In this document: one piece after another, positions 17,125-33,579 of the stretch
How the letters are laid out: every line of letters begins with the position of its first letter
Numbering within the stretch: the stretch's first letter is position 1
Source: Candidatus Altimarinota bacterium
Lineage (GTDB): Bacteria; Patescibacteriota; Gracilibacteria; UBA1369; UM-FILTER-53-11
DNA length: 40,000 nt
Direction of reading: 5' to 3'
Assembly (NCBI GenBank): GCA_018061065.1
Contig: JAGOUV010000001.1
Span: 12,217-52,216, forward strand
Notes under the pieces: model-generated
The model's input: only the letters and a program-made list of their open reading frames with translations
What the model was told of the DNA's origin: nothing
The model's database searches: none
Position numbers and translations under genes: made by a program

Positions 17125-18237
17125 ATGAAAAAGGTAGTGGTCGCTATGTCGGGTGGAGTAGATTCGTCTGTTGCGGCAGCCCTTTTAAAGGAGCAGGGCT
17201 ATGAGTGTATCGGCGTGCATCTGCACTTCTGGACAGATCCAAAAGTCGACGAGCTTACTAAACATTTGCCGCAAAATAAATGTTGCACATTAGGTGGATT
17301 GGAGGATGCACGTTGGGTGGCGGGGAAGTTAGGTATGCCTTTTTATGTGTTAAATGTTGAGCAGCAGTTTAAGGATCATGTGGTGGATTATTTTTTAGAA
17401 ACCCATGCGCAGGGGCGCACGCCTAATCCGTGTGTTGAGTGCAACAATCATATTAAATTTGGATATTTATGGGATAAAGCGCGCGAGCTTGGAGCTGATT
17501 TTCTGGCTTCTGGCCACTATGCACAGGTACTTGAGGAAGAGGGGGTGAAAACATTGCATACGCCGGTGGATATGGAAAAAGATCAGACGTATTTTTTGTT
17601 TCGCACGAAACAGGCGGTCTTAGATCACGTACTTTTTCCGATGGGGAAATACAAAAAATCCGAAGTGTATGAAATAGCAAAAAAATACGGATTAATTCGC
17701 GTGACGGAAAAACCGGAAAGTCAGGGGCTTTGTTTCTTTTCTGAGGCTTCGCCAAAACATTTTTTGAAAAGGTATCTTGAGGCAAAACATTTTACTCATG
17801 GTTCGATTATCACCGTGGATGGACGTACCATTGGAGAGCATAAAGGGTTGCCTCTCTATACCGTAGGGCAGAGAAGTGGCTTGGGAATCGGAGGAATTAA
17901 GGGCGAGCCGGAAGGCGAGCCCTGGTATGTTGTTCGTTTAGATCCTGAGAAAAATGCACTTATTGTAGGTCGAGAAAAAGATATTTTAGAGTCGCGCATC
18001 GAGTGTGAAGAAGTGCGTTTTATTGGTGAACCTCCGTCTACTCCCATGGAAGTAGAGGTGCGCATACGTCATCGTGGCGAACGTATTCCGGCTACGCTTA
18101 CTGTTAATCAGGACAAAGCAGTTCTTATATGTAGGCATCCTGCGCGTGGAGTTTCTCCCGGTCAGGCTGCGGTATTTTATGTGGGAACAAAGCTGCTGGG
18201 AGGTGGTATAATTACGTTAAGTCGCATTGCGATTTAA
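17125..18237 (+). CDS. mnmA: tRNA-specific 2-thiouridylase MnmA
   Basis: The PP-loop VAMSGGVDSSVAA is present, with catalytic Cys contexts (NPCVECN, GLCF). Confidence 0.95.
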   Translation: MKKVVVAMSGGVDSSVAAALLKEQGYECIGVHLHFWTDPKVDELTKHLPQNKCCTLGGLEDARWVAGKLGMPFYVLNVEQQFKDHVVDYFLETHAQGRTPNPCVECNNHIKFGYLWDKARELGADFLASGHYAQVLEEEGVKTLHTPVDMEKDQTYFLFRTKQAVLDHVLFPMGKYKKSEVYEIAKKYGLIRVTEKPESQGLCFFSEASPKHFLKRYLEAKHFTHGSIITVDGRTIGEHKGLPLYTVGQRSGLGIGGIKGEPEGEPWYVVRLDPEKNALIVGREKDILESRIECEEVRFIGEPPSTPMEVEVRIRHRGERIPATLTVNQDKAVLICRHPARGVSPGQAAVFYVGTKLLGGGIITLSRIAI

Positions 18238-18256
18238 GCAGTGTAGCCCTCCTCTT

Positions 18257-19147
18257 ATGGCTGAGAAAAAAGAAATATTCACACTTCATATTGATGCCTT
18301 ACCCTCAGTTGCTAAGCCTGCAAAAATTCAGGCACAGCAGGTTCATCGTAAGAAATCACTTAATGTAGAACTTCCCGCACCTGTTCTGCCAGCACCTCAA
18401 GCACAAGCCGTAAAGTCCCGTTCGCTCATAGGTAAAATATGGGAAAAAGTTGAGTTTATCTTTGTATCTGGAGCGGTTTTCTTAGTAATTTATGTGATTC
18501 TCAACTGGCAGGCATTGGCACTTAACGCCGAGCATTATTGGGACGTTTGGCGTGGAGTGAAAAGTCCGCTTGAGCACTTGGTGGCAGATACAGAAAATGT
18601 TCCTGAGCGTCTTACACCGACGGTAACTGCATCAGCAAATGGTATTGCCGATGAGTACACCATTCCGCCTCTTGAAATTGAAGTCTATCCTACCGACATG
18701 CGCGTTGTGATTCCACGAATTAATCAAAATGTTCCGGTAGTTGGAGTGAAAAATGAAAACCTTATTGCACGACGCTGGGAAGAATTGGAAAAAGATATTC
18801 AAGGTGCTCTACGCAGCGGTGTGGTGCATTATCCAGGAACCTCATTGCCGGGTGATCGTGGGAATGTGGTAATTACCGGTCACTCATCATACTATGCATG
18901 GGATCCTGGTCGCTTTAAAGATGTGTTTGCGTTGCTGCATGACGTTCAGGTAAAAGACCGTGTGGTGGTCTATTTCAATCAGAAGAAGTTTATTTACGAG
19001 GTCGATAAAAAAGAAGTCGTACTTCCAAAAGATGTCGATGTCTTGAGTGCTACCAATCACGAGCAGCTCACGCTGATCACCTGTACACCTATTGGGACAA
19101 ACTTAAAACGCCTTGTGGTGACCGCGCACTTAGTCGAGCAAAGTTGA
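18257..19147 (+). CDS. Sortase-family transpeptidase with an N-terminal membrane anchor
   Basis: VVITGHSSY (His) ... LTLITCTP (catalytic Cys, TLxTC) ... R near the C terminus, with a TM helix FIFVSGAVFLVIYVIL. I prefer the ATG at 18257 over the TTG at 18227 used by the ORF track. Confidence 0.85.
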   Translation: MAEKKEIFTLHIDALPSVAKPAKIQAQQVHRKKSLNVELPAPVLPAPQAQAVKSRSLIGKIWEKVEFIFVSGAVFLVIYVILNWQALALNAEHYWDVWRGVKSPLEHLVADTENVPERLTPTVTASANGIADEYTIPPLEIEVYPTDMRVVIPRINQNVPVVGVKNENLIARRWEELEKDIQGALRSGVVHYPGTSLPGDRGNVVITGHSSYYAWDPGRFKDVFALLHDVQVKDRVVVYFNQKKFIYEVDKKEVVLPKDVDVLSATNHEQLTLITCTPIGTNLKRLVVTAHLVEQS

Positions 19148-19154
19148 AAACGTT

Positions 19155-19664
19155 CTATAAATTATTCAACTGACTGAGCAAATTCTCCTGCGCTGCAGCT
19201 TCTTGCTCCTTTGTGGTGGCCTCTTCCACGCGGATTTTTTCCCGCTCTTCTTTGTGCTCAAACTCTTTCCATTCCTCAACATGTTTCTGATTAATCTGCT
19301 CAACATTCTGATTATATTGTTTATCGAGTGTCGCCAGCTGCTGCTTCTCATTGTTCAAAATTTCACGCAACTTTTGTACCTGATCATCCGTCATAATCGG
19401 CAAAATCTGAAACCAGTAGCGGCGTTCATCGTCGTTCATTGACTCTGTCTGCAAAATCAACGGCACTAATTCACCAAATTTCTCCTTAACTGTGTCAGGA
19501 ATATTATATTTTTCAAAGAGTGACTGATTTGCGTCATCGCTTGTTGTAGTCGCAGTTGTCGTCTGTGTTGTTGCGGCTGTTGCAGCTTGGGTTATTTGAT
19601 TGAGATCAAATCCGCCTTGAGCTGAAGTACCGGTAGGGGTCTGATTGTTTGTTGTGTCAGCCAT
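19155..19664 (-). CDS. Hypothetical protein: Thr/Gln-rich N terminus plus a conserved helical domain (family copy A)
   Basis: This 169-aa protein is the last gene of the five-gene operon. Residues ~64-135 align without gaps to the C-terminal domain of ORF 32524..33252 (see findings). Confidence 0.7.
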   Translation of the reverse strand: MADTTNNQTPTGTSAQGGFDLNQITQAATAATTQTTTATTTSDDANQSLFEKYNIPDTVKEKFGELVPLILQTESMNDDERRYWFQILPIMTDDQVQKLREILNNEKQQLATLDKQYNQNVEQINQKHVEEWKEFEHKEEREKIRVEEATTKEQEAAAQENLLSQLNNL

Positions 19665-19684
19665 ATGTATCGAGTTATTATACC

Positions 19685-21160
19685 TTATTTTGCAGCCTTT
19701 TGTCCATCTTCAGCAGGTGCTTCTGGTGCAGTAGGGGTGGCAGGTGTCTCGGGAGTCTCAGGGGGAGCCGTGATTACACTTGTGCCCTTATATTTAAAGT
19801 CCACGCCAATATCTTTTGGTGAGAGGAGAGCCAATACCGTCTGATCTTTTCCGTTGGCTACCTTGGTCATTCTGAGCGATAATTTCGTCTTAAATTTATC
19901 GATTCGATCAGCAGGAACATTACTAAAACCCTTAATTTTATTTAATTCATCTGGCTTGCCGAGCAGTGCAAGTACGTCACTGGCTTTTTTATCTGCAAAG
20001 TTACTCGCAAACTTTTTAGGAATGCCCGCATCTTTAAAACGCTGTTCAACATTGAGCATGAGTTTTGCCTCTTCTACACCACTTTTTGCGAGCATATCGG
20101 TGGATACAAAGAATGAAGCGAGTGATTTACCAATCCACGGAATTTTATACAGTGCCATTCCAATACTGGTCATAATCGCTACTATTTTAGGAGCGTAAGC
20201 AGCAAATTTTCCGTCGAATGATGTCTTGAGAAATGATTCAGCCTGTCCGCTTAGAGAAGGATCTTCATTTAGTATCGCATCTTCAGCCTGATCTTCGGCG
20301 GTTTGTGTCGCACCCAGCTCTTTCAATGCTTCCTCAGCTTTTGTTTTTGCCGCCTCAACGGGTGCTTTTTTGGCTTCACTGCCATCATATTCTCCGACTG
20401 CTTTTTTGAGCTCGGCAATGGCATCAACCGTGGCTGCTTTCTCACCGCCTTCATTTGCATTCATATCAGTCTCAAATTTTGCAATATTAATGCCATTTAC
20501 ATAGGCAATGGCATCTTTGAGTCCATCGATTTCGCGTTGTGCCGCATCCACTTTTGTTTGGTCACCATTTGCTGCATCTAACTGTGACTTTAATCCATCA
20601 AGTTTCGTTTTAAGTGTCGTTGCGTTTGGCTCCAGCCCTGAGAGTGTTCCCTCAATACCTTGTTTTTGTGTGGTAGCCGCCTTGCCCACTGCAGCGCGCT
20701 GCTCGCGTTCAGCTTTCCACGCATCAAACCCTGTTTTATTTGCGGACTCAAACCATTGTTCAAAGTTTGCAATAGGTTGGGTTTTGAATTCGGCTACGGC
20801 TGCTTGTGCTCTAGGAAGATCTACTTTCTTACCCCAACCCGGATCTTTCGCATCGGCAATCTCAATTAATTTTGTCTTCACTGCATCCATCCATAAACGA
20901 CGCTGAATATCTGGTGCATCATGCGGAATGCTACTGATTGTATTCTTAAATGCCATCACCAGTTCAGCAACCGGTGGTGAAGATTGATCCTTATCTTCTA
21001 AATCAATCTTTTCAACTAATCCTTTATAAAAGGCAGTGGCAAATTGGTCTAGCTGTGCCTGGGTTTGCCCCGTAATATCAGCACGCGCACCCTCTGGAGC
21101 CGCTGGTTTTTCCGGTACGACGGGTTTAGGTGCTTCTGGTGGTGTCTGTGGATCAGCCAT
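19685..21160 (-). CDS. Hypothetical coiled-coil protein with Pro-rich termini and one internal hydrophobic segment
   Basis: The 491-aa protein has the N terminus MADPQTPPEAPKPVVPEKPAAPE and a C terminus rich in PETPETPATPTAPEAP. It has long Ala/Lys/Glu-rich helices and a hydrophobic stretch IVAIMTSIGMALYKIPWIGKSLASFFV. No signal peptide is present. Confidence 0.7.
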   Translation of the reverse strand: MADPQTPPEAPKPVVPEKPAAPEGARADITGQTQAQLDQFATAFYKGLVEKIDLEDKDQSSPPVAELVMAFKNTISSIPHDAPDIQRRLWMDAVKTKLIEIADAKDPGWGKKVDLPRAQAAVAEFKTQPIANFEQWFESANKTGFDAWKAEREQRAAVGKAATTQKQGIEGTLSGLEPNATTLKTKLDGLKSQLDAANGDQTKVDAAQREIDGLKDAIAYVNGINIAKFETDMNANEGGEKAATVDAIAELKKAVGEYDGSEAKKAPVEAAKTKAEEALKELGATQTAEDQAEDAILNEDPSLSGQAESFLKTSFDGKFAAYAPKIVAIMTSIGMALYKIPWIGKSLASFFVSTDMLAKSGVEEAKLMLNVEQRFKDAGIPKKFASNFADKKASDVLALLGKPDELNKIKGFSNVPADRIDKFKTKLSLRMTKVANGKDQTVLALLSPKDIGVDFKYKGTSVITAPPETPETPATPTAPEAPAEDGQKAAK

Positions 21161-21184
21161 AAAAGTGCTGTTTAAAAGATTTGT

Positions 21185-22093
21185 TTATGCCTTTTTTTCA
21201 GGCTCAGCTTTAGCGGGTGGTGGAGGGGTTTTATCTTTATTTTCAAATCCAGTTATATAAGGCGCGGGATCGATTGCTTTTCCATTATCCATAATACTAA
21301 TCTGCAATGTCTCATTAGCTTTCATATTTCCTACAGTTCCTCCAGGAGCTACTGAGCCAGCTACAAGTCCCTTAGTGTCTACATTTGAATAATGAATGAC
21401 TTTTCCTTCTAATGGTCCATCACTTACCTTTAGATCAAATTCATTAGCTTTGATGTTCTCTATAGTGCCTTTTTCCATGGCGAGAATCGAGGTATCTGCC
21501 ACGACCTTCATACTCAGTACATTGTTTGTGATAACTTTTTCTGGAGGGAATACCTTGAGTTCAGCTCCAAAAGGTGACGAGGTAAAGCCAGGGGCGTTTT
21601 TGCTTTTATCTGCGGCATCTTTACTCTTACTAATGCCAATTTTATCGGTAAATTTCTCAACTAGTTTCACCATTGCATTCATGAGATCTTCAAATAGTTT
21701 TCCCACTTTCTTGAAGAACTCATCTGCGTTACTTGCGCCTGCTGCGGCAAGCGTAGCATTTGCTCCTTGTTCGAGGGGGGTGGTGCCTGTTCCTTCTGGA
21801 GTAGTGGTAGCAGGAGCCGTAGGATTAGCAGGTGGTGCGGACAATGCAGTTTCGGCGGTCTTTTTTAATGCTTCTGCCTTAGCATTATCACCTTGTTCTG
21901 CTGCTTTTAGGGCCGCTTCTACTGCTTGTTTTGCTGCCTCTGGTTTATCAGCGGGAACGGGAGTTTCGGGTCCGACCGGAGCTGCGGTTGGTGCAACGGG
22001 TGCTGTTGGCGCAGCTGCAGGCGCATTCGGCGCCATCCAGACAAAGCGATTTTCTGGTGGTACAGCGGTGGTGATGCAATAAAATAATTTCAT
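21185..22093 (-). CDS. Degenerate LytM/M23-like domain protein (zinc ligands missing) with a Pro/Ala-rich N-terminal half
   Basis: The C-terminal ~110 aa follow the M23 template (SSPFG..., VIHYSNV, GGTVGNM, LQISIMDNGKAIDPAPYI). HxxxD and HxH are replaced by LSMKV and LQISI. The start could be 22093 or the internal ATG at 22036. Confidence 0.6.
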   Translation of the reverse strand: MKLFYCITTAVPPENRFVWMAPNAPAAAPTAPVAPTAAPVGPETPVPADKPEAAKQAVEAALKAAEQGDNAKAEALKKTAETALSAPPANPTAPATTTPEGTGTTPLEQGANATLAAAGASNADEFFKKVGKLFEDLMNAMVKLVEKFTDKIGISKSKDAADKSKNAPGFTSSPFGAELKVFPPEKVITNNVLSMKVVADTSILAMEKGTIENIKANEFDLKVSDGPLEGKVIHYSNVDTKGLVAGSVAPGGTVGNMKANETLQISIMDNGKAIDPAPYITGFENKDKTPPPPAKAEPEKKA

Positions 22094-22096
22094 AAA

Positions 22097-23383
22097 TTAA
22101 CTGTTGTTCGATAAGTCAGCAAAATGGAGTGCAACTTCCGCTACTTGTTTTGCGTAATCTGCACGTTTATCGCAGCCATAATATCCGGGTTTGATTTCTT
22201 CGCGCTGCCAGTATCTCATCTTTTTGAAATTTTCTGGCGACTTATTATCCATCCAGTTTGCGTAGAGGACATAACCAAGTGCTCCCATGTTGTGGGTAAT
22301 ATAAATTTTTTCAACATCACTTGCGTCATTTATTTTCCACTTATCGTTTACACGTTTGTTTACATACGCCATTGATTCCCGAATATTCCAAGCAGTAAAC
22401 ATAATTGCATCACGCGCATTGTGCGGATCAAAATTCGGATCCTGGTGTTTTTGATAGCTTTCACGCGTAGTTTTAATAACCTGAGCATACCCAGCGGCAC
22501 CTGATGATTCATTGACGATAAGCGCATTCCAGCGTGATTCTTTTGAGATAATCGCCACAAGTGTTTCTACCGGAACACCATATTTTGCTGATGCTTCAGG
22601 AAGTGCTTTTTCGATAACCGGCTGGTCTTTCCAGCTGGCGATACCTTCTCGCACACCATCCACAAATTTTTTGTAGAGCTTTGGATTTTTATTCATGCCA
22701 CATTCCTGTGCCTTTTGACGAATGAACTCATCGGTAACTTCACCGCGTTCTTGAGCGGCAGACAGTTCGTTGATAATGCTGCTGGGAACACTCTGTCCAA
22801 CTGCAATACGGAGCTGTCCGGGGAGGTCTTTTGTGTTTATTTTTTTGTACGCACGCAGTGCAGTGTATCGTTCCTGTTGAGATAACTGTCGATCGAGTTT
22901 ATGGGGTTGCCAAGGGGCTTTTCGCATCTTTGAAGTTGCTTCCACTTCTTCAGCTTCTTCAGTAGTGAGGGGTCTCTCTTCGCGTGGGGTGTCCAGTGTT
23001 GCGCGTACATCGTCTGCGGTCGCTCCGTAGGGAGCGAGCAGGTTAAGTAATTTTTCAAATATTTTTTCAACCGCTTCACCTAATTTGCTAAAGGTATCGG
23101 CGAGTTTTCGGGTTGTGTCACAGAGGGTATTGGGATCTGTTTCCAACTTTTCAGCTTCCACTTTTACTCCTGTTGTTTTTGATATTTCATGTGCCTTTTT
23201 GGCCTGTACATCACGAATAATGCCCTTTAATTTTGGTCCGACCGGCTCTGCGGGGACTTTTTCATAAGGTTCTTTTGGTTTCTCTGCGGCTACCACCGGT
23301 TGGGCAGTGGTCGTCTCAGCACCGCGGTAGCACCAGCGTTGAGTTGAGAGAGTTGCTCGGAAATAGTGAGAAAATAATTGCAT
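22097..23383 (-). CDS. Lytic transglycosylase (SLT) domain protein
   Basis: The C-terminal third carries SLT motifs: catalytic E-S (ISKESRWN), GAAGYAQV (G-x-x-Q) and THNMGALGY (the AYNAG position). No signal peptide is present. The start lies 1 nt after the upstream stop. Confidence 0.7.
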   Translation of the reverse strand: MQLFSHYFRATLSTQRWCYRGAETTTAQPVVAAEKPKEPYEKVPAEPVGPKLKGIIRDVQAKKAHEISKTTGVKVEAEKLETDPNTLCDTTRKLADTFSKLGEAVEKIFEKLLNLLAPYGATADDVRATLDTPREERPLTTEEAEEVEATSKMRKAPWQPHKLDRQLSQQERYTALRAYKKINTKDLPGQLRIAVGQSVPSSIINELSAAQERGEVTDEFIRQKAQECGMNKNPKLYKKFVDGVREGIASWKDQPVIEKALPEASAKYGVPVETLVAIISKESRWNALIVNESSGAAGYAQVIKTTRESYQKHQDPNFDPHNARDAIMFTAWNIRESMAYVNKRVNDKWKINDASDVEKIYITHNMGALGYVLYANWMDNKSPENFKKMRYWQREEIKPGYYGCDKRADYAKQVAEVALHFADLSNNS

Positions 23384-23384
23384 G

Positions 23385-23774
23385 TTAGATGACGTATACG
23401 TCGCCTGAAATTTCTTCCAAGCTTTCTTTTGTTAAACGCACTGAGTGAACCAAATTTTCAATCTGAAATGTGGGCTGTTTGTAGTACGTCCATAAGTCGT
23501 AGATCGTACGCAGCGTAGAGCAGAGATTAAACGCATCTAGATCTACTTTTCCCTGTTGTAGCTCATTCAGTTTTTCATAGATGGGCATGTTGATGAGCGA
23601 GCTGGGCATAAGTAAGTTAATTTCCTTGGCTTCTACCTTAGCGACTACCATATTCAAAAACGCCTCATCTTCCTGAGAAATCCCCTGTGGATTCACAACC
23701 GGAGTGTTAAGCATTTTTTGCGTCTCCGGATCGATATCCGATAAACCTGTAGTTGGTGTTTGTTTTGGTTCCAT
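23385..23774 (-). CDS. Hypothetical protein (129 aa), first gene of the five-gene operon
   Basis: The ORF is tightly packed against the next gene. I recognise no family. The C terminus reads TKESLEEISGDVYVI. Confidence 0.55.
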   Translation of the reverse strand: MEPKQTPTTGLSDIDPETQKMLNTPVVNPQGISQEDEAFLNMVVAKVEAKEINLLMPSSLINMPIYEKLNELQQGKVDLDAFNLCSTLRTIYDLWTYYKQPTFQIENLVHSVRLTKESLEEISGDVYVI

Positions 23775-23778
23775 TTAA

Positions 23779-27483
<3,705 letters not shown>

Positions 27484-27544
27484 TGTGGGGCTACGATAGC
27501 ACGAAATAACTAAGGAGTCAGCAGTAACCTCTTGACCGCTCCTG

Positions 27545-27991
27545 TTAGGCTGCTGCGTTTTTCTCAAATCCACTATGTGCTTTAGCTGAAGCCTTTGTTC
27601 CTTCCGTAACCGTGTTTTGCGCCACGAGTGCTGCGGCTTCCTGGGCAAGTGCTTTGGATGCCTCTTTGGGGCCCGTGGTAGGGATTTCTTTATTTTGTGA
27701 TACCGCTATTCCTTCAACGGGGAATCCTTTAGCTCCTAACTCTTGAACACCATTTTTGACGAGTGCGAGCATTTGATCTCCTGCTTTGTGCATAGTGTCA
27801 TTAAAATCTTTGAGTGCAGCCTGAAGTTGAGGAGTTTTTTCAGGAGGAGTATGCGCAACAATATCAGCCGTATTGAGTGCTTCGGCTGCAGCTGGAGGAA
27901 GCGCATCGGATTGCTCTGGTGGCTTTATTTGATTATTTGTCTCCACGCCGTTTGGCGCTGGTACATCTGGTTGTTTTGCTACTTCTGTCAT
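27545..27991 (-). CDS. Hypothetical Pro/Ala-rich protein (148 aa)
   Basis: The ORF sits 2 nt downstream of the 81-aa gene. It has no signal peptide, and its composition resembles the low-complexity proteins of the 19-23 kb operon. Confidence 0.5.
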   Translation of the reverse strand: MTEVAKQPDVPAPNGVETNNQIKPPEQSDALPPAAAEALNTADIVAHTPPEKTPQLQAALKDFNDTMHKAGDQMLALVKNGVQELGAKGFPVEGIAVSQNKEIPTTGPKEASKALAQEAAALVAQNTVTEGTKASAKAHSGFEKNAAA

Positions 27992-27993
27992 AA

Positions 27994-28239
27994 TTATGCG
28001 TTAACAACAATACTTGCTAAATGATTTTTTAGCTCCTGCCATGCGTGTGTTTCAAGTGCTCTAATGCGCTGAACCTCGGTTGCCTCTTTTTCAAAAAATA
28101 CTTTTAAATCCAGCAACTGTGCTTCGGTTGTATTATCCAATCTCACGAGCATTTTTTTCTTATCCTCAAAAGACAAGATCTGCGAGGACAAAATGAGCCC
28201 TTCAACTTCCCTCAATAATGGTGCATTTGCGTTTGGCAT
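27994..28239 (-). CDS. Small helical protein (81 aa), probable divergent copy C of the conserved helical domain
   Basis: LILSSQILSFEDKKKMLVRLDNTTEAQLLDLKVFFEKE aligns without gaps to the core of copies A and B. Confidence 0.5.
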   Translation of the reverse strand: MPNANAPLLREVEGLILSSQILSFEDKKKMLVRLDNTTEAQLLDLKVFFEKEATEVQRIRALETHAWQELKNHLASIVVNA

Positions 28240-28262
28240 ACTTCAGATAAGTATACCATTTT

Positions 28263-29387
28263 TTACTTATTTTGGGAATACGTCTCTGCAACGAGCTCTT
28301 CTATGGCTGTGCGGAAGTTGGCAGTGCTGAATTTTTGGGCATGTTCATGCATTTTCAGCGGATTGTAGGTTGTCTGAAGCAGTTTTTCTAATCCTTCTTT
28401 CATGGATTCAACCGTTTGTTCCTTAAAAAATTCTCCCGTCACTCCCGCTATCACCGACTCACTCACTCCACCTTCTTGGTACGCGAGCACTGGTTTTCCA
28501 CATGCCATAGCTTCTACCGGCGTTATGCCAAAATCTTCTTCACCAGGGAATATCAACGCTTTGCAGCGCATCATATAATCGCGGACGACGTCATCGGGCT
28601 GCCAACCCAGAAATGTAATATTTGAATTTGCCTTATTCATAAGGCTTGCGCGATGAGCCCCCTCACCAATAACAACGAGTTTTTTTTCTGTCGTATTGAA
28701 AAAATCCACCGCAAGATCAACTTTTTTATAAGGCGAAAGCGTTGAGACAATTAAATAAAAATCTTCATGCGTGGTGGACGGAGAAAAGCGCTCGATATCA
28801 ACGGGAGGATAGACAACGCGTGATTCTTGGCGATAGTATTTTTTGATTCGTTTTTGTACATGATGAGAATTCGCGATAAGCATATCTGCTCTGTCCGATG
28901 CGGTAAAATCCCATATGCGTAATCCGTGCATTATTTTTTCAACCGCCATTTTTTTGAGACCTTTTAGATGTTGCTCGTGTTTATATTCATGCGTCCAATC
29001 CCAGAGATAGCGGACGGGGGAGTGCATATAACAAATATGTTTGGTGTGCGGACTGGTGATAATGCCGTGTGCAAATGCCGTGCTCGATGAGATAACGAGA
29101 TCGAATTCTGAAAAATCAAAATCTTCTATATACCGTGGCAAGAGGGGAAGTAGATAGCGATAGCGTTTTTTTATAAAATTAGGGAGGCGCTGAAGTCCTG
29201 AGGTAACAATACGTTTTTCAGGAAAAATACTGCCCGTTTTTTCTGCATCATAAAGGAGCGTATAAATGGGCGCCTCGGGAAACATCTCTGCCAATACGTT
29301 TAAAACACGCTCGGCGCCGCCCAGTCGCAGGAGATAATCATGCACTAATGCAACGCGTAGACCTTTCGTGGACAGGCTTTCTTTCAC
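28263..29387 (-). CDS. GT4-family (GT-B fold) glycosyltransferase
   Basis: The C-terminal motif FPGEEDFGITPVEAMACGKPVLA (E-x7-E) is present, and the 374-aa length is typical. Confidence 0.85.
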   Translation of the reverse strand: MKESLSTKGLRVALVHDYLLRLGGAERVLNVLAEMFPEAPIYTLLYDAEKTGSIFPEKRIVTSGLQRLPNFIKKRYRYLLPLLPRYIEDFDFSEFDLVISSSTAFAHGIITSPHTKHICYMHSPVRYLWDWTHEYKHEQHLKGLKKMAVEKIMHGLRIWDFTASDRADMLIANSHHVQKRIKKYYRQESRVVYPPVDIERFSPSTTHEDFYLIVSTLSPYKKVDLAVDFFNTTEKKLVVIGEGAHRASLMNKANSNITFLGWQPDDVVRDYMMRCKALIFPGEEDFGITPVEAMACGKPVLAYQEGGVSESVIAGVTGEFFKEQTVESMKEGLEKLLQTTYNPLKMHEHAQKFSTANFRTAIEELVAETYSQNK

Positions 29388-29405
29388 CAGCCCACCCTAG
29401 CCGAT

Positions 29406-30041
29406 CTATGCGGCTTTCACAATAGCGATTCCCTCTAAATGAAGAGCCCCGACACTTCGTAGAGTCTGCGCCGCTGAGTTCATAGTAGCCCCCGTTGTTA
29501 TGACATCATCAATAAGATAATACGTATACGTTGGATCGAGTTGCAGGCGGTCTCGGGGGTCAAATGCGCGTAACATGTTTTCCGCCCGTGCTGTTTTTGA
29601 GAGACCCACCTGCGGCCGCACATAGTGAGTACGCACAAGTAAATCCTGTAGCTCAATCTCATATTGCTTTGCGATCATAGTGGCAATAATCCGACTTTGA
29701 TTAAATCCGCGCCACGCAAGTCTCCGTGGATGCAGAGGAATAGGCACTAGTATCGCTGGCCGCTTAATAGTAATGGTGCGTTTTTGCAACATTGTTTCTA
29801 TGACCTCTTCCACGGCGGAACAAAAATTATATTTGAGTAACTGTGTGAGCTGTAGTGCGCAGGGATCACGATATTCTTGAAAGAGGGAATGTACCTGCAG
29901 GTCGCCGATCGTATCTTTTTTTGCGATTGCTTGTTGTAATGAGCCGAAACATTTTAAACAGAAAAAGGTGCCTTCTCGCTTACATGATACGCAGCGTTGA
30001 GGAAATAAAAAGTTCACCAATCGGTCAACAAATAACTGCAT
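29406..30041 (-). CDS. comF: ComF-family phosphoribosyltransferase-domain protein
   Basis: An N-terminal Cys4 zinc ribbon (CVSCKREG...CLKC) is followed by the PRTase motif YYLIDDVITTGATM. Confidence 0.8.
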   Translation of the reverse strand: MQLFVDRLVNFLFPQRCVSCKREGTFFCLKCFGSLQQAIAKKDTIGDLQVHSLFQEYRDPCALQLTQLLKYNFCSAVEEVIETMLQKRTITIKRPAILVPIPLHPRRLAWRGFNQSRIIATMIAKQYEIELQDLLVRTHYVRPQVGLSKTARAENMLRAFDPRDRLQLDPTYTYYLIDDVITTGATMNSAAQTLRSVGALHLEGIAIVKAA

Positions 30042-30056
30042 AAATGAGTTTTTTAA

Positions 30057-30126
30057 ACCGAAGCGGCGGAGTCAGTGCTCCTATCCGAACCTGCCATTGT
30101 CGGATAACAATTTGCACCGCTTCGGT
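30057..30126. other. 70-nt nested stem-loop element (candidate structured RNA or regulatory element)
   Basis: A perfect 10-bp outer stem ACCGAAGCGG (30057-30066) / CCGCTTCGGT (30117-30126) encloses a 7-bp inner stem TATCCGA (30082-30088) / TCGGATA (30100-30106). The element starts 16 nt upstream of the comF start codon. Confidence 0.4.
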
Positions 30127-30213
30127 CTTGTATCGTCGATACTTATAACAGACCAACATTAAATTTCTGTGAAATAATTATGAAAAATTTATGAACGGGA
30201 AAAACCGCCGGGG

Positions 30214-30242
30214 TTGCCTAAGGCTACGGCGCTCACTATAAT
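30214..30242 (+). promoter_or_regulatory. Candidate sigma70 promoter TTGCCT-N17-TATAAT upstream of tRNA-Val(GAC)
   Basis: The -35 is at 30214-30219, and a consensus -10 is at 30237-30242 with a 17-nt spacer. The promoter lies about 115 nt upstream of the tRNA. Confidence 0.45.
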
Positions 30243-30311
30243 ACGCAGGCTTATAGAAGTAATTCTTCAATCTTGAGCGTCCCACAGGGACGCTGCGTAG
30301 GCTGAACGAGG

Positions 30312-30355
30312 ATCTGGCTTTGCCAGTCCGAGTGAGGCCGAAGCCTATAAAGTAA
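30312..30355 (+). repeat. Conserved 44-nt tRNA-Val leader, copy 1
   Basis: ATCTGGCTttGCCAGT...N...(T)ATAAAGTAA abuts the tRNA 5' end. 27 of 44 positions are identical to copy 2, with identical spacing. Confidence 0.7.
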
Positions 30356-30432
30356 GGGCAGTTAGCTCAGTTGGCTAGAGCGTCTCGTTGACGTCGAGAA
30401 GGTCAGAGGTTCGAATCCTCTACTGCCCACCA
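30356..30432 (+). tRNA. tRNA-Val (anticodon GAC), CCA encoded
   Basis: Manual cloverleaf: acceptor GGGCAGT/ACTGCCC, D stem GCTC/GAGC, anticodon stem TCTCG/CGAGA with loop TTGACGT, T arm AGAGG-TTCGAAT-CCTCT, discriminator A, CCA. Confidence 0.93.
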
Positions 30433-30554
30433 CAGGTTGTTCAGTATCAGGAATCGTTCATCATGACGGTAAAGTTTTGTATATAATATTTGCTTGAGCC
30501 TATCTGCAACTATCATATACTGCTCATACAGATATTTTATTACTTACCACTTCT

Positions 30555-31280
30555 ATGTCTATGAAAAATAATGTATTTTCTCGGTCATTGCAGTTTGTAG
30601 CTCTTGCTGCGTTGCTTGCAATAACATTGAGCGCGTGCACACTCGCCGGAGATGACAACGCGGGAAAAAATAACCCACCAAACGGTCAGGCAAGTGATGC
30701 TGATAAAGATGATGATACCCTGGCCATCCCAAGAATTGATACTCAAGCCGCACAACTCCGCGTTGTTTTAAATACCCTTTATAGACAGCATGTTAACCTT
30801 GCTTCAGAAGCATTACGTGCGAGTTTTGATGGTGCCGTTCAGTCCGATGCTGCCGCGCATTCACTCGATCGCAACTCAATTGAAATGGCGAAAGTTATTG
30901 GCACAATCTATGGTCCCGATTCAGAGAAACGTTTCCTGGAGATATGGAGAAGCCACATTGGTTTTTTTGTAGACTACACGCTTGCTAGTAAAAAAGGTGA
31001 TAAAGCTGCTATGGAAAAGGCGGTAAAGAACCTAGGCGGATATGTTGATGCGATAGCTGACTTCCTCTCAAGTGCAAATCCTAACTTACCTCGTCAAACC
31101 GTTAAAGATCTTGTAAGCCAACACATCACTCACTTGAAGACAGCAATTGATAGTTATGTGGTAAAAGAATATGCAAAATCATACCTCGCACAGTCAGATG
31201 CAGATTTGCAAATGGGTGCGTTTGCCGATGTCATTACAGGAGCGGTAGTGAGACAGTTCCCTGCGAAATATAATAAATAA
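30555..31280 (+). CDS. Helical lipoprotein of unknown function
   Basis: The signal peptide has a lipobox (LAITLSAC|TLAG). The mature part is helical with two similar halves (..YRQHVNLASEAL.., ..LVSQHITHLKTAI..). Confidence 0.7.
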   Translation: MSMKNNVFSRSLQFVALAALLAITLSACTLAGDDNAGKNNPPNGQASDADKDDDTLAIPRIDTQAAQLRVVLNTLYRQHVNLASEALRASFDGAVQSDAAAHSLDRNSIEMAKVIGTIYGPDSEKRFLEIWRSHIGFFVDYTLASKKGDKAAMEKAVKNLGGYVDAIADFLSSANPNLPRQTVKDLVSQHITHLKTAIDSYVVKEYAKSYLAQSDADLQMGAFADVITGAVVRQFPAKYNK

Positions 31281-31304
31281 TTAAATAAATAGCTAAGTTG
31301 ATAT

Positions 31305-31339
31305 AGAAGCCCTGTAAGATATATACTTGCAGGGCTTCT
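31305..31339 (+). terminator. Strong stem-loop downstream of the lipoprotein gene (terminator-like, no U tract)
   Basis: AGAAGCCCTGTAAG-ATATATA-CTTGCAGGGCTTCT forms a stem of about 14 bp (one G-T pair). It starts 25 nt after the stop and is followed only by TT. Confidence 0.45.
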
Positions 31340-31376
31340 TAGCGAGCGCACGGCGCGAGCGCGAAACGAGCGAAGA

Positions 31377-31420
31377 ATCTGGCTCAGCCAGTTCTGAACG
31401 AAGTTGAGCTCATAAAGTAA
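31377..31420 (+). repeat. Conserved 44-nt tRNA-Val leader, copy 2
   Basis: ATCTGGCTcaGCCAGT...CATAAAGTAA abuts the tRNA 5' end, with the same block spacing as copy 1. Confidence 0.7.
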
Positions 31421-31497
31421 GGGCAATTAGCTCAGTTGGTTAGAGCGCACGATTCACATTCGTGAGGTCACAAGTTCGAATCTTGTATTGCCCACCA
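31421..31497 (+). tRNA. tRNA-Val (anticodon CAC), CCA encoded
   Basis: Manual cloverleaf: acceptor GGGCAAT/ATTGCCC, D stem GCTC/GAGC, anticodon stem CACGA/TCGTG with loop TTCACAT, T arm ACAAG-TTCGAAT-CTTGT, discriminator A, CCA. Confidence 0.93.
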
Positions 31498-31507
31498 TAT
31501 GACCATA

Positions 31508-31535
31508 TTGACAAAATAAAGTTTCGGCATATTCT
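31508..31535 (+). promoter_or_regulatory. Candidate promoter TTGACA-N16-TATTCT of the isochorismatase-family gene
   Basis: A consensus -35 is at 31508-31513 and the -10 at 31530-31535. The -10 ends 6 nt before the GTG start (31542), consistent with a leaderless mRNA. Confidence 0.5.
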
Positions 31536-31541
31536 ATTAGT

Positions 31542-32237
31542 GTGAGAAGGCTATACAATCTTGAAGCTCAACCGAATCCAATTGAAATTGATGCCGCACA
31601 TAGCGCCGTTATTGTAACGGATATGCAGCGTGATTTTATGGAGAGAGGAGGAGTCGCAGAAGCATGGGGACAAAATCCCGAAGCCCTTCGACATATTATT
31701 CCTAATATTCAGAGAGTTGTTGATGCTGCACGAAAAGCTGCAATAGAAGTCATTTGGTTACGTGAAGGATATAGTTCAGATTTAAGTGATGTGCCAATTT
31801 CTTGGAAAGAAGATTTTGCTGAAGGTGAGCGCATTGGAGATGTTGGGAACGGAGGGTGGAGATTTTTGATTCGTGGTGAATTAGGACATGGAATTATTGA
31901 TGAACTCAGCCCAGCGCCGGAAGAGAAAATCTTTGATAAGGCTTCAAAAAACGCATTCCACAGGCCAGAATTTAATGCTTATTTGCAGCAAGCATTAAAA
32001 AGAAATCTACTATGGACGGGTGTGACCACGAATGTTTGTGTGGGAACGAGCGTGCGTGCTTCAAATGATCATGGTTATAGATCAGTAGTCCTTGCAGACG
32101 GAACTGCTGCCTATAATCCTGCTTGGCATGAAAATGAATTAGATACTATCCGTGGACAGGGGAAGCAAAATAAACGTGGGATTTTTGGCTGGGTTACTAC
32201 TTCAGAAAATGTAATTCGGTCATTAGAGGCTGCTTAA
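31542..32237 (+). CDS. Isochorismatase-family cysteine hydrolase
   Basis: AVIVTDMQRDF (Asp), a mid-protein Lys context and TGVTTNVCVGTSVRASNDHGY (catalytic Cys) are present. The start codon is GTG. Confidence 0.8.
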   Translation: MRRLYNLEAQPNPIEIDAAHSAVIVTDMQRDFMERGGVAEAWGQNPEALRHIIPNIQRVVDAARKAAIEVIWLREGYSSDLSDVPISWKEDFAEGERIGDVGNGGWRFLIRGELGHGIIDELSPAPEEKIFDKASKNAFHRPEFNAYLQQALKRNLLWTGVTTNVCVGTSVRASNDHGYRSVVLADGTAAYNPAWHENELDTIRGQGKQNKRGIFGWVTTSENVIRSLEAA

Positions 32238-32337
32238 ATATATATAGTTTGTCCTTAACAGGACAGACGAGCTAGTGCACGTGCACACTTATTTGAAATA
32301 TTTATGGTCTTTTTTCAAAAATCTGCTATTAATGGTG

Positions 32338-32358
32338 GTCTGCCCGGGCAGACTTTTT
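32338..32358 (+). terminator. Rho-independent terminator (GTCTGCCCGGGCAGAC + TTTTT)
   Basis: A perfect 16-nt GC-rich palindrome is followed by a T5 run. It starts 101 nt after the stop of the upstream gene. Confidence 0.7.
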
Positions 32359-32504
32359 GCCCGTTATTTGGCTTTATATAAGCCATTTTCGCCTTAAAAA
32401 GTCTACCGCCTACGCGGCGACTTACCAACTCATAGTAAAAAAGAGGCATGCGGTCGCAGAAACTATATATAAAGTTTCTCCATTTTATGAGGCGATCAAC
32501 AATA

Positions 32505-32513
32505 TGTTATAAT
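32505..32513 (+). promoter_or_regulatory. Extended -10 promoter element TGTTATAAT
   Basis: This is a perfect TGnTATAAT that ends 10 nt before the ATG at 32524. Confidence 0.5.
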
Positions 32514-32523
32514 CGCTACACTT

Positions 32524-33252
32524 ATGGACGATCAATTCATTCCACCGCCACCTCCACCACCACAAAACTCAGGACAGCCATTTAATGATCCTAATGCGGG
32601 TTATCAGCAACCGTATTCACAACAACAATACGATCCAGCGCAGTATGCGGGAGCTCAGCCAGCAGGCCAGCAACAACAATTTGCGCAGCCAGATCCAACT
32701 CAGTACGCAGGCGATCAATCTCCGCAATATCCGCAAGCCTCAGCACAAGATCCCTACGCTCAGATGGGCTATGATCCTCTCATGGGTCAGGCAGGGCAGG
32801 GAGGAGGCGATGATCCTTTTGGTGATGCAGGCGGTGCGCCTCCTGCAGGTGCTCCACCTCCCAAGCCAAGCAAACCAGCAAATTTTCAGTTGGGTACGCT
32901 TCTCGGGCCAGTTTTAAATATAAAAGTTGCTCCTCATTCATTACAGTTTGATCAGCAGTATTTTTTGCATCTCTTGGCCGGCTCTATTTCCCTTACTAAA
33001 GACGAAAAAATCCGCATTGTTGAATCCATTCCGAAGTTAAAGCAGGTTCAGGTTGATGAGTTGGTTAGAATTTTCGAGGAAGAGCGCGTGAAGTTCGCCG
33101 AACTAGGGGAGGAGCATGTACCTCAGCTTGAGAAACTCGCAAAGCAGCACTATGAAGACTGGATCGATATTGAAATGCGTCAGCAGCAGGTAAGCCAAGC
33201 CTCTACAGACGAGGCTCAGGCAGACGAAATTCGCAAACAATTGGGCCTTTAA
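32524..33252 (+). CDS. Protein with a Gln/Pro/Tyr-rich disordered N-terminal half plus the conserved helical domain (family copy B)
   Basis: The 242-aa protein starts with PPPPPPPQ and has imperfect repeats DP(A/T)QYAG(A/D)Q. Its C-terminal domain SLTKDEKIRIVESIPKLKQVQVDELVRIFEEE...QHYEDW is homologous to ORF 19155..19664. Confidence 0.75.
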   Translation: MDDQFIPPPPPPPQNSGQPFNDPNAGYQQPYSQQQYDPAQYAGAQPAGQQQQFAQPDPTQYAGDQSPQYPQASAQDPYAQMGYDPLMGQAGQGGGDDPFGDAGGAPPAGAPPPKPSKPANFQLGTLLGPVLNIKVAPHSLQFDQQYFLHLLAGSISLTKDEKIRIVESIPKLKQVQVDELVRIFEEERVKFAELGEEHVPQLEKLAKQHYEDWIDIEMRQQQVSQASTDEAQADEIRKQLGL

Positions 33253-33276: not shown

Positions 33277-33579
33277 ATGAAAAAGACAATGACGGTTTTC
33301 TCAGCATTGATGCTTATTGCACTTTTGAGCGCGTGTGGCACCACACCTACTGCGACAGTAACAACTGATACAACTCAATCAAACGACTCAGTACAAACAA
33401 CTACAGTGAAAGAGGGAACTTCACCAGAAGTAACTGCCGAAGAAAAATCCCCCTCAGTTGATGAAGGGGATCTTTATTTTAAGGTCCTTGCAAGCGGTGA
33501 TGTGAAGCAGTGCGATAAACTTACTACAGTATTCCTTAAGTCACAGTGCACCAGCAAACTTACTGCTAAAGAAGAATAA
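33277..33579 (+). CDS. Small lipoprotein (100 aa)
   Basis: A signal peptide with lipobox (LIALLSAC|GT) is followed by a Thr-rich linker and a short C-terminal domain with two Cys. Confidence 0.65.
   Translation: MKKTMTVFSALMLIALLSACGTTPTATVTTDTTQSNDSVQTTTVKEGTSPEVTAEEKSPSVDEGDLYFKVLASGDVKQCDKLTTVFLKSQCTSKLTAKEE

Follow-up and report, generated by a model that had tools for sequence, protein, structure and literature searches.

Do three unannotated genes that lie within 14 kb of one another belong to a single protein family, and what might such a family do? The question is raised by a 40,000-nucleotide stretch of DNA from a Candidatus Altimarinota bacterium of the Gracilibacteria (contig JAGOUV010000001.1), which we refer to as the window and whose numbering is used for all coordinates unless another contig is named. 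An earlier note, made from the sequence alone, had pointed to a shared helical domain in three open reading frames (ORFs), all of which are present where that note placed them: gene A, encoding 169 residues (19155..19664, minus strand), gene B, encoding 242 residues (32524..33252, plus strand), and gene C, encoding 81 residues (27994..28239, minus strand). Our findings show that the module in A and B is a genuine homologous domain of about 85-90 residues, and that it recurs in large multidomain proteins of other bacterial phyla.

Homology and predicted fold of the module

Residues 75-132 of A and 156-213 of B align with zero gaps and 15 identities, as the earlier note had claimed, and this alignment scores 75 with BLOSUM62. 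When the C-terminal halves of the two proteins are compared, the highest-scoring ungapped segment reaches 85, against 32.0 +/- 5.3 in 1000 composition-preserving shuffles (z = 10), none of which attains the real score, so that the pair withstands the shuffle comparison which the note had proposed. By BLASTP with compositional adjustment the same pair reaches only E = 0.13, which is not significant and explains why routine annotation would leave A and B unconnected. When the family profiles of A and B are compared, hhalign gives a probability of 94.9% and E = 4.2e-8 over 77 ungapped columns, and in the joint alignment the residues S, E, Q, I, E, H and W do not vary in either family.

The two proteins share a common layout, in which a low-complexity N-terminal region, present in both as previously described, precedes the module. 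As read from the ORF list and the family alignment, A consists of a Thr/Gln-rich disordered head, the A-type module (residues 55-145; 19230..19502, minus strand; delimited by alignments, hhalign and structure prediction), a charged helix and a conserved C-terminal tail, NLLSQLNNL (19158..19184, minus strand; family alignment columns 301-309, consensus LLKKLQxL). The A-type motif is TESMNDDERxYWFQILPIMTxxQVxKLREILxNEKxQLxxLDxxYxxxxxxxNxKHxxEW. In B, a Pro/Gln/Tyr-rich disordered head is separated from the B-type module (residues 136-226; 32929..33201, plus strand; delimited by alignments and structure prediction) by a PANFQLG motif (32875..32895, plus strand), of which P118, A119, N120 and G124 are invariant in the B alignment. 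The B-type motif reads PxHxLxFDExxFLxLLAGSISLTKDEKxRIxESIPKLKQxQxDELxRIFEEExxKFAxLxxxHxxQLxKLxxxHxxxW, and the protein ends in its own conserved tail, EIRKQLGL (33226..33249, plus strand), with G241 invariant and R237 and K238 nearly so. The tails of the two families are alike, and they could represent a common docking motif.

Structure prediction, another of the checks proposed for this domain, yields an all-helical module at a mean predicted local distance difference test score (pLDDT) of about 88. The AlphaFold2 models, built as monomers with the family alignments, reach a pLDDT of 87.4 for the A module, with helices at residues 3-8, 12-18, 24-36 and 39-90, and of 87.8 for the B module (predicted template modelling score 0.75), where residues 10-60 score 92-97. 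In both, an extended lead-in is followed by two short helices and by a third that runs on for 52-59 residues; the short helices are predicted to pack at the base of the third as a small cap, from which the long helix extends as a stalk. The lead-in of the module has the pattern P-x-H-x-L-x-F-D-E. The cap is highly conserved (SISLT-DEK ... IP-L-Q-Q-DEL). Along the long helix, conserved hydrophobic residues at positions 49, 52/53, 56, 63, 66, 74, 77, 85 and 88 recur at a spacing of 3-4 residues, the length and periodicity looked for in a coiled coil, and H70, H81 and W85 are in line with this heptad-like hydrophobic stripe. The module is acidic, with a mean net charge of -4.4 over its copies and an isoelectric point of about 4.5 for A and B.

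The case of C is less direct. The earlier note had taken it for a shortened copy, a claim that fails in pairwise comparison, where shuffles give z = 1.0 against A and 1.8 against B and BLASTP returns nothing, but that stands at the profile level and through a positional ortholog. A hidden Markov model (HMM) of the A and B modules ranks C fourth among the 5,274 ORFs of the genome (E = 0.035), aligning its residues 14-61 (28057..28200, minus strand) with profile positions 14-61. The sole database relative of C, P0242, is 70% identical and matches the HMM with E = 6e-4, while P0243, the positional ortholog of C in a related genome (80 residues, beside dnaX; L004), does so with E = 5e-7, and all three sequences match in one register. 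Between C and P0242, nonsynonymous divergence is low relative to synonymous divergence (pN = 0.19, pS = 0.76; pN/pS about 0.25), which indicates purifying selection, and the order comF-GT4-C-dnaX is conserved, with comF-GT4-C common to the C and P0242 loci. Because of the matches in a single register, the pN/pS ratio and the shared synteny, C is a real gene and most likely a short, divergent representative of the family in which the cap and the beginning of the stalk are retained. The same genome search, itself one of the proposed checks, adds a further ORF, D, of 77 residues, which begins MDELLNNQLNQDIILMLALSQFMAQAEKRAWVELLEDMTDEEKNILKNNL and matches the first half of the module with E = 4e-4; D is found outside the window (C18:165770-166003, plus strand), and the genome therefore holds four candidate members rather than three.

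These results bear on the possibility that the similarity between A and B is an artefact of composition or of coiled-coil periodicity or, at the least, that C is not a true member. Such a reading could draw on the compositionally adjusted BLASTP searches, at only E = 0.13 for A and B and with nothing for C, and on the value of 0.035 that C reaches by itself. For A and B it is already refuted by the shuffle and profile tests (z = 10; E = 4e-8) and by the invariant polar residues that they have in common, and for C it is countered by three related sequences that match in one register, down to 5e-7. Taken as a whole, we regard it as extremely improbable.

A and B across the class

Sequence searches return at least 154 orthologous proteins for A and at least 482 for B, all of them hypothetical proteins filed under the names Candidatus Peregrinibacteria, Gracilibacteria or Patescibacteria, and none with a Pfam domain. 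Members of both families consist of a variable low-complexity head followed by a strongly conserved C-terminal part, the last 108 residues of B being 65-85% identical across its family. In a phylum-wide sample of 301 genomes, all 17 genomes of the Peregrinibacteria/Gracilibacteria class are strongly matched, usually by one A and one B; among the other Patescibacteria genomes, 13 of 284 are matched, weakly and only in the first half of the module. Gene order is conserved as well. In the compared genomes, A is preceded by ligA and, divergent from ligA, a gene of about 130 residues, and is followed by convergent sortase, mnmA and ychF genes, and B comes after comF-GT4 on the opposite strand; in another genome the distance between A and B is 34 kb.

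A maximum-likelihood tree of 65 module copies separates an A-type clade, with 11 A proteins from the Candidate Phyla Radiation (CPR) together with caspase, Sel1 and kinase fusions, from a B-type clade with 10 CPR B proteins and 38 copies out of multidomain proteins (support 100/99). Based on this split, on the class-wide presence of both genes and on their conserved synteny, A and B are ancient paralogous subtypes and not the products of local expansion. This overturns the earlier proposal of an expanded, lineage-specific family: the subtypes are deep, both clades include multidomain proteins of other phyla, the module reaches at least four phyla, and a local expansion is at odds with the usual count of one A and one B, in conserved synteny, in 17 of the 17 sampled genomes of the class. 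The sequencing runs in which the locus was detected are wastewater metagenome DNA only, and no RNA run was found among them.

In other classes of Patescibacteria, four genomes (G068, G293, G043 and G190; loci L006-L009) encode proteins of 300-520 residues that are headed by the first ~40 residues of the module, in the form L..LI..S.LL..EEK..WL.LLP.MNDKQL.EL..IL. In these proteins a long Pro-rich linker leads to a different conserved C-terminal domain (..GYF.V.F.LEQSPLY..Y...G..), which looks like another unannotated family.

The module in multidomain proteins of other phyla

An exhaustive HMM search over 1.84 billion protein-cluster representatives, which extends the search that the earlier note had suggested, returns 1,485 representatives at E <= 1e-3, of which 609 reach E <= 1e-10. 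Among the best-scoring matches are proteins of 1,000-2,444 residues with 3-6 tandem module copies. Carriers named in two cluster look-ups derive from Gammaproteobacteria, Deltaproteobacteria and Bacteroidota metagenome-assembled genomes (MAGs), and the copies in such multidomain proteins are 39-53% identical to the B module. The Pfam domains that accompany the module are CHAT, SIR2_2, NB-ARC/nSTAND, TPR, FGE-sulfatase, Peptidase_C14 (caspase), Pkinase, Mrr_cat, Sel1 and HisKA/HATPase_c.

The arrangement of the module relative to these partners varies. In P0377 and P0349 it stands on the N-terminal side of a caspase domain, and in P0361 on that of Mrr_cat, while giant proteins with NB-ARC, SIR2 and CHAT domains contain it in several copies. 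In P0250 and P0244, both from Gammaproteobacteria MAGs, one or two copies split the FGE-sulfatase domain, whose halves cover profile positions ~28-150 and then ~171-255 or 208-255; the copies lie between the halves and are therefore inserts in that domain. A full-text literature search, PMC7159879 included, found neither the module nor a helical insert in FGS domains described. The module is non-enzymatic and mobile, and tolerates both tandem repetition and insertion in another domain. Against phage and plasmid collections, tblastn gave no match. A protein of 559 residues from Logan/ENA, P0274, is a Ser/Thr kinase with a C-terminal A-type module that the tree places within the CPR A clade, and its kinase part strongly matches the PADLOC PD-T4-6 models.

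Comparison with known families and systems

The earlier statement that the domain belongs to no named family holds throughout the databases searched. Pfam gave nothing significant for A, B or C, NCBIfam matched none of the module proteins, PADLOC had no match for A and B, and the best hit in profile searches of Protein Data Bank (PDB) sequences was the HMG box of SOX-5 at E = 0.16. Foldseek searches with the A and B models likewise returned no significant match.

Among known systems, the closest parallel is with the effector-associated domains (EAD1-11) and the Death-like adaptor domains found in NTP-dependent conflict systems of bacteria (Kaur et al., eLife 2020, PMC7159879; eLife 2021, PMC8195603). 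Like these, the module is small, all-alpha and non-enzymatic, is fused N-terminally to effectors (caspase, Mrr), and occurs on STAND NTPases as well, alongside SIR2, CHAT, TPR and FGE-sulfatase (FGS) domains. It differs in being predicted as a cap and long stalk and not as a compact helical bundle, and in also forming a class-wide core pair of stand-alone proteins in CPR bacteria. No Pfam EAD or Death-like model matched A, B, any of 14 domain copies or any of 22 multidomain carriers. EADs are, in addition, coupled homotypically, with the same domain on neighbouring genes, and in the three multidomain-carrier loci sampled here no such pair was seen; for this reason we do not count it among the EADs.

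Among hub or scaffold proteins of bacteria, PopZ and McdB combine a disordered region with a helical oligomerisation domain. A and B resemble them in being acidic and in having a low-complexity disordered region followed by a helical or coiled-coil part at the C-terminus; they differ from them in the order of parts and in the motifs, and no sequence relationship was detected.

Gene neighbourhoods in the window

The earlier note had paired each gene with a neighbouring orphan: a 491-residue coiled-coil protein, a 148-residue protein and a small lipoprotein. These genes do sit where described, but they are not conserved partners. The partner of A is instead an orphan protein of 129 residues (23385..23774, minus strand), whose gene opens the operon that A closes in the window; it also opens the operon in a closer relative (L001), and in L002 and L003, two more distantly related genomes, it is the gene immediately upstream of A. 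Its orthologs match with E = 1e-31 to 1e-51, are essentially restricted to the class and lie no more than about 4 kb from a module gene. Judged by this gene order, the 129-residue protein is A's conserved operon partner, predicted to be co-transcribed with A. The three genes in between (19685..23383, minus strand) encode 428 residues with an SLT domain (SLT_4, E = 3e-11 in Pfam), 302 residues and the 491 residues already mentioned. They intervene in this order only, among closer relatives: they are present in L001, there with a Peptidase_M23 domain, but absent in L002 and L003, and are therefore outside the conserved core.

The small lipoprotein gene downstream of B (33277..33579, plus strand) has a counterpart at the same position in two related genomes (L004 and L005), with weak sequence conservation (E = 7.6e-7 and 0.013). 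Convergent to A lies a gene for a class C/D/E-like sortase with a TLITC motif (18227-19147, plus strand; NCBIfam E = 3e-22), whose position next to A is conserved in three other genomes. On the minus strand at 25873-27991, next to C, the longest dnaX ORF (TTG start at 27648) overlaps the 148-residue ORF (27545..27991). The conserved N-terminus of dnaX starts at an internal ATG near 27483, which is probably the true start, and the overlap is then probably an artefact of ORF calling.

Discussion

From the observed homology, distribution and domain architectures, together with the predicted fold, we infer that this is a protein-interaction or oligomerisation module and that A and B serve as hub or scaffold proteins, a reading that we hold with somewhat better than even confidence. 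In this mechanism oligomerisation would occur through a coiled coil formed by the stalk, while the conserved cap would bind a conserved partner; a specific partner of this kind is suggested because conservation of the cap is unusually strong for so small a helical domain. Within the class, A and B are core, acidic, cytoplasmic proteins, in which the module, the disordered head and the conserved tail make up a hub or scaffold layout. In other phyla, whose copies are linked with effector and signalling domains, the module would serve assembly or recruitment.

Several points weigh against this proposal. The B-type copies often carry Gly or Pro, as read from their sequences, near L-G/D-x-x-H-x-P; these residues could break or kink the stalk, and its appearance as one continuous helix may stem from modelling the module as a monomer. 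Foldseek offers no significant structural neighbour that would point to a specific function for either model, with best E values of 2.0 and 3.4 and template modelling (TM) scores of 0.2-0.35, and no second module carrier lies within +/-10 kb in the three multidomain-carrier loci whose surroundings were inspected (L013, L014 and L015).

A more specific version of the protein-interaction reading would make the cap distantly related, or else analogous, to the ET domain of BET proteins, with short linear peptides held in a groove between two helices. The helix-loop-helix of the B-type copies, with its S/T-x-x-E-K...I/L-P-x-L...L-x-x-I pattern, does resemble an ET domain, and the Pfam BET model (PF17035) matches 6 of 14 such copies at E < 1, covering SISLT-DEK...IP-L...DEL, the best at E = 5e-4 to 8e-4. 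All of these matches are sub-threshold, however, the best scoring 19.9 bits against a gathering threshold of 24.5, and neither A nor B is matched. The long stalk belongs to the module and not to the ET domain, and no ET-domain chain, with its three-helix fold, appears in the PDB sequence-profile search or among the Foldseek PDB matches of both models, so that we consider this kinship unlikely. A different role is implied if the stripe of two histidines and a tryptophan, together with polar residues of the cap, forms a metal, haem or small-molecule site, which would make the module a sensor and not an adaptor. H74 and W78 are invariant over A and B, the second histidine is conserved in the B-type copies, and the proteins to which the module is fused include some of the sensor type, such as histidine kinases and STAND NTPases, besides the ligand-binding FGE-sulfatase domains in which it is inserted. 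Yet no known binding fold is matched by Foldseek, the histidines and the tryptophan lie on the hydrophobic-core stripe, a placement that fits a coiled-coil interface equally well, and the part that bears them is missing from the short members C and D. A sensory site of this kind therefore seems quite unlikely to us.

That the module might bind nucleic acids, in the manner of an HMG box or a homeodomain, is suggested by the SOX-5 HMG box at the top of the PDB sequence-profile search (E = 0.16) and by the DNA-binding domain of Sox2 and homeodomains among the weak Foldseek matches (E = 3.4-3.8, with 3.8 for Sox2). None of these matches is significant, and TM scores are 0.2-0.3. The acidity of the module (net charge -4.4, isoelectric point about 4.5), the opposite of what DNA-binding HMG boxes and homeodomains display, argues further against this reading, and we judge it very unlikely.

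There is also a more far-reaching version of the interaction proposal. The bacterial class to which A and B belong is known to include episymbionts and predators of other bacteria, and in plants the integrated domains of nucleotide-binding leucine-rich repeat (NLR) proteins act as decoys or sensors. The NLR-like proteins of Gammaproteobacteria, Deltaproteobacteria and Bacteroidota carry up to six module copies that are 40-53% identical. It is conceivable, though highly improbable in our estimation, that the module operates at the interface between CPR episymbionts and their hosts, and that the copies in NLR-like STAND, caspase and SIR2 proteins are integrated decoys or sensors for the module or its partner. 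If true, the module would serve bacterial immunity against parasites that are themselves bacteria.

The analysis delineates a domain family of 1,485 cluster representatives that the searched family and structure databases leave uncovered. This family joins two things that have no other connection: a universally conserved and highly constrained orphan pair of the Peregrinibacteria/Gracilibacteria class, and the variable regions of giant NLR-like proteins with STAND, caspase, SIR2 and FGE-sulfatase domains in other phyla. The genomes of the class are mostly unannotated. A family model would annotate many hypothetical proteins. Being small, soluble and readily expressed, A and B would offer an experimental handle on a module that proteins of bacterial conflict and signalling employ. 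Should there be a conserved partner of the module, identifying it would inform both the cell biology of CPR bacteria and the way in which the giant proteins sense or assemble.

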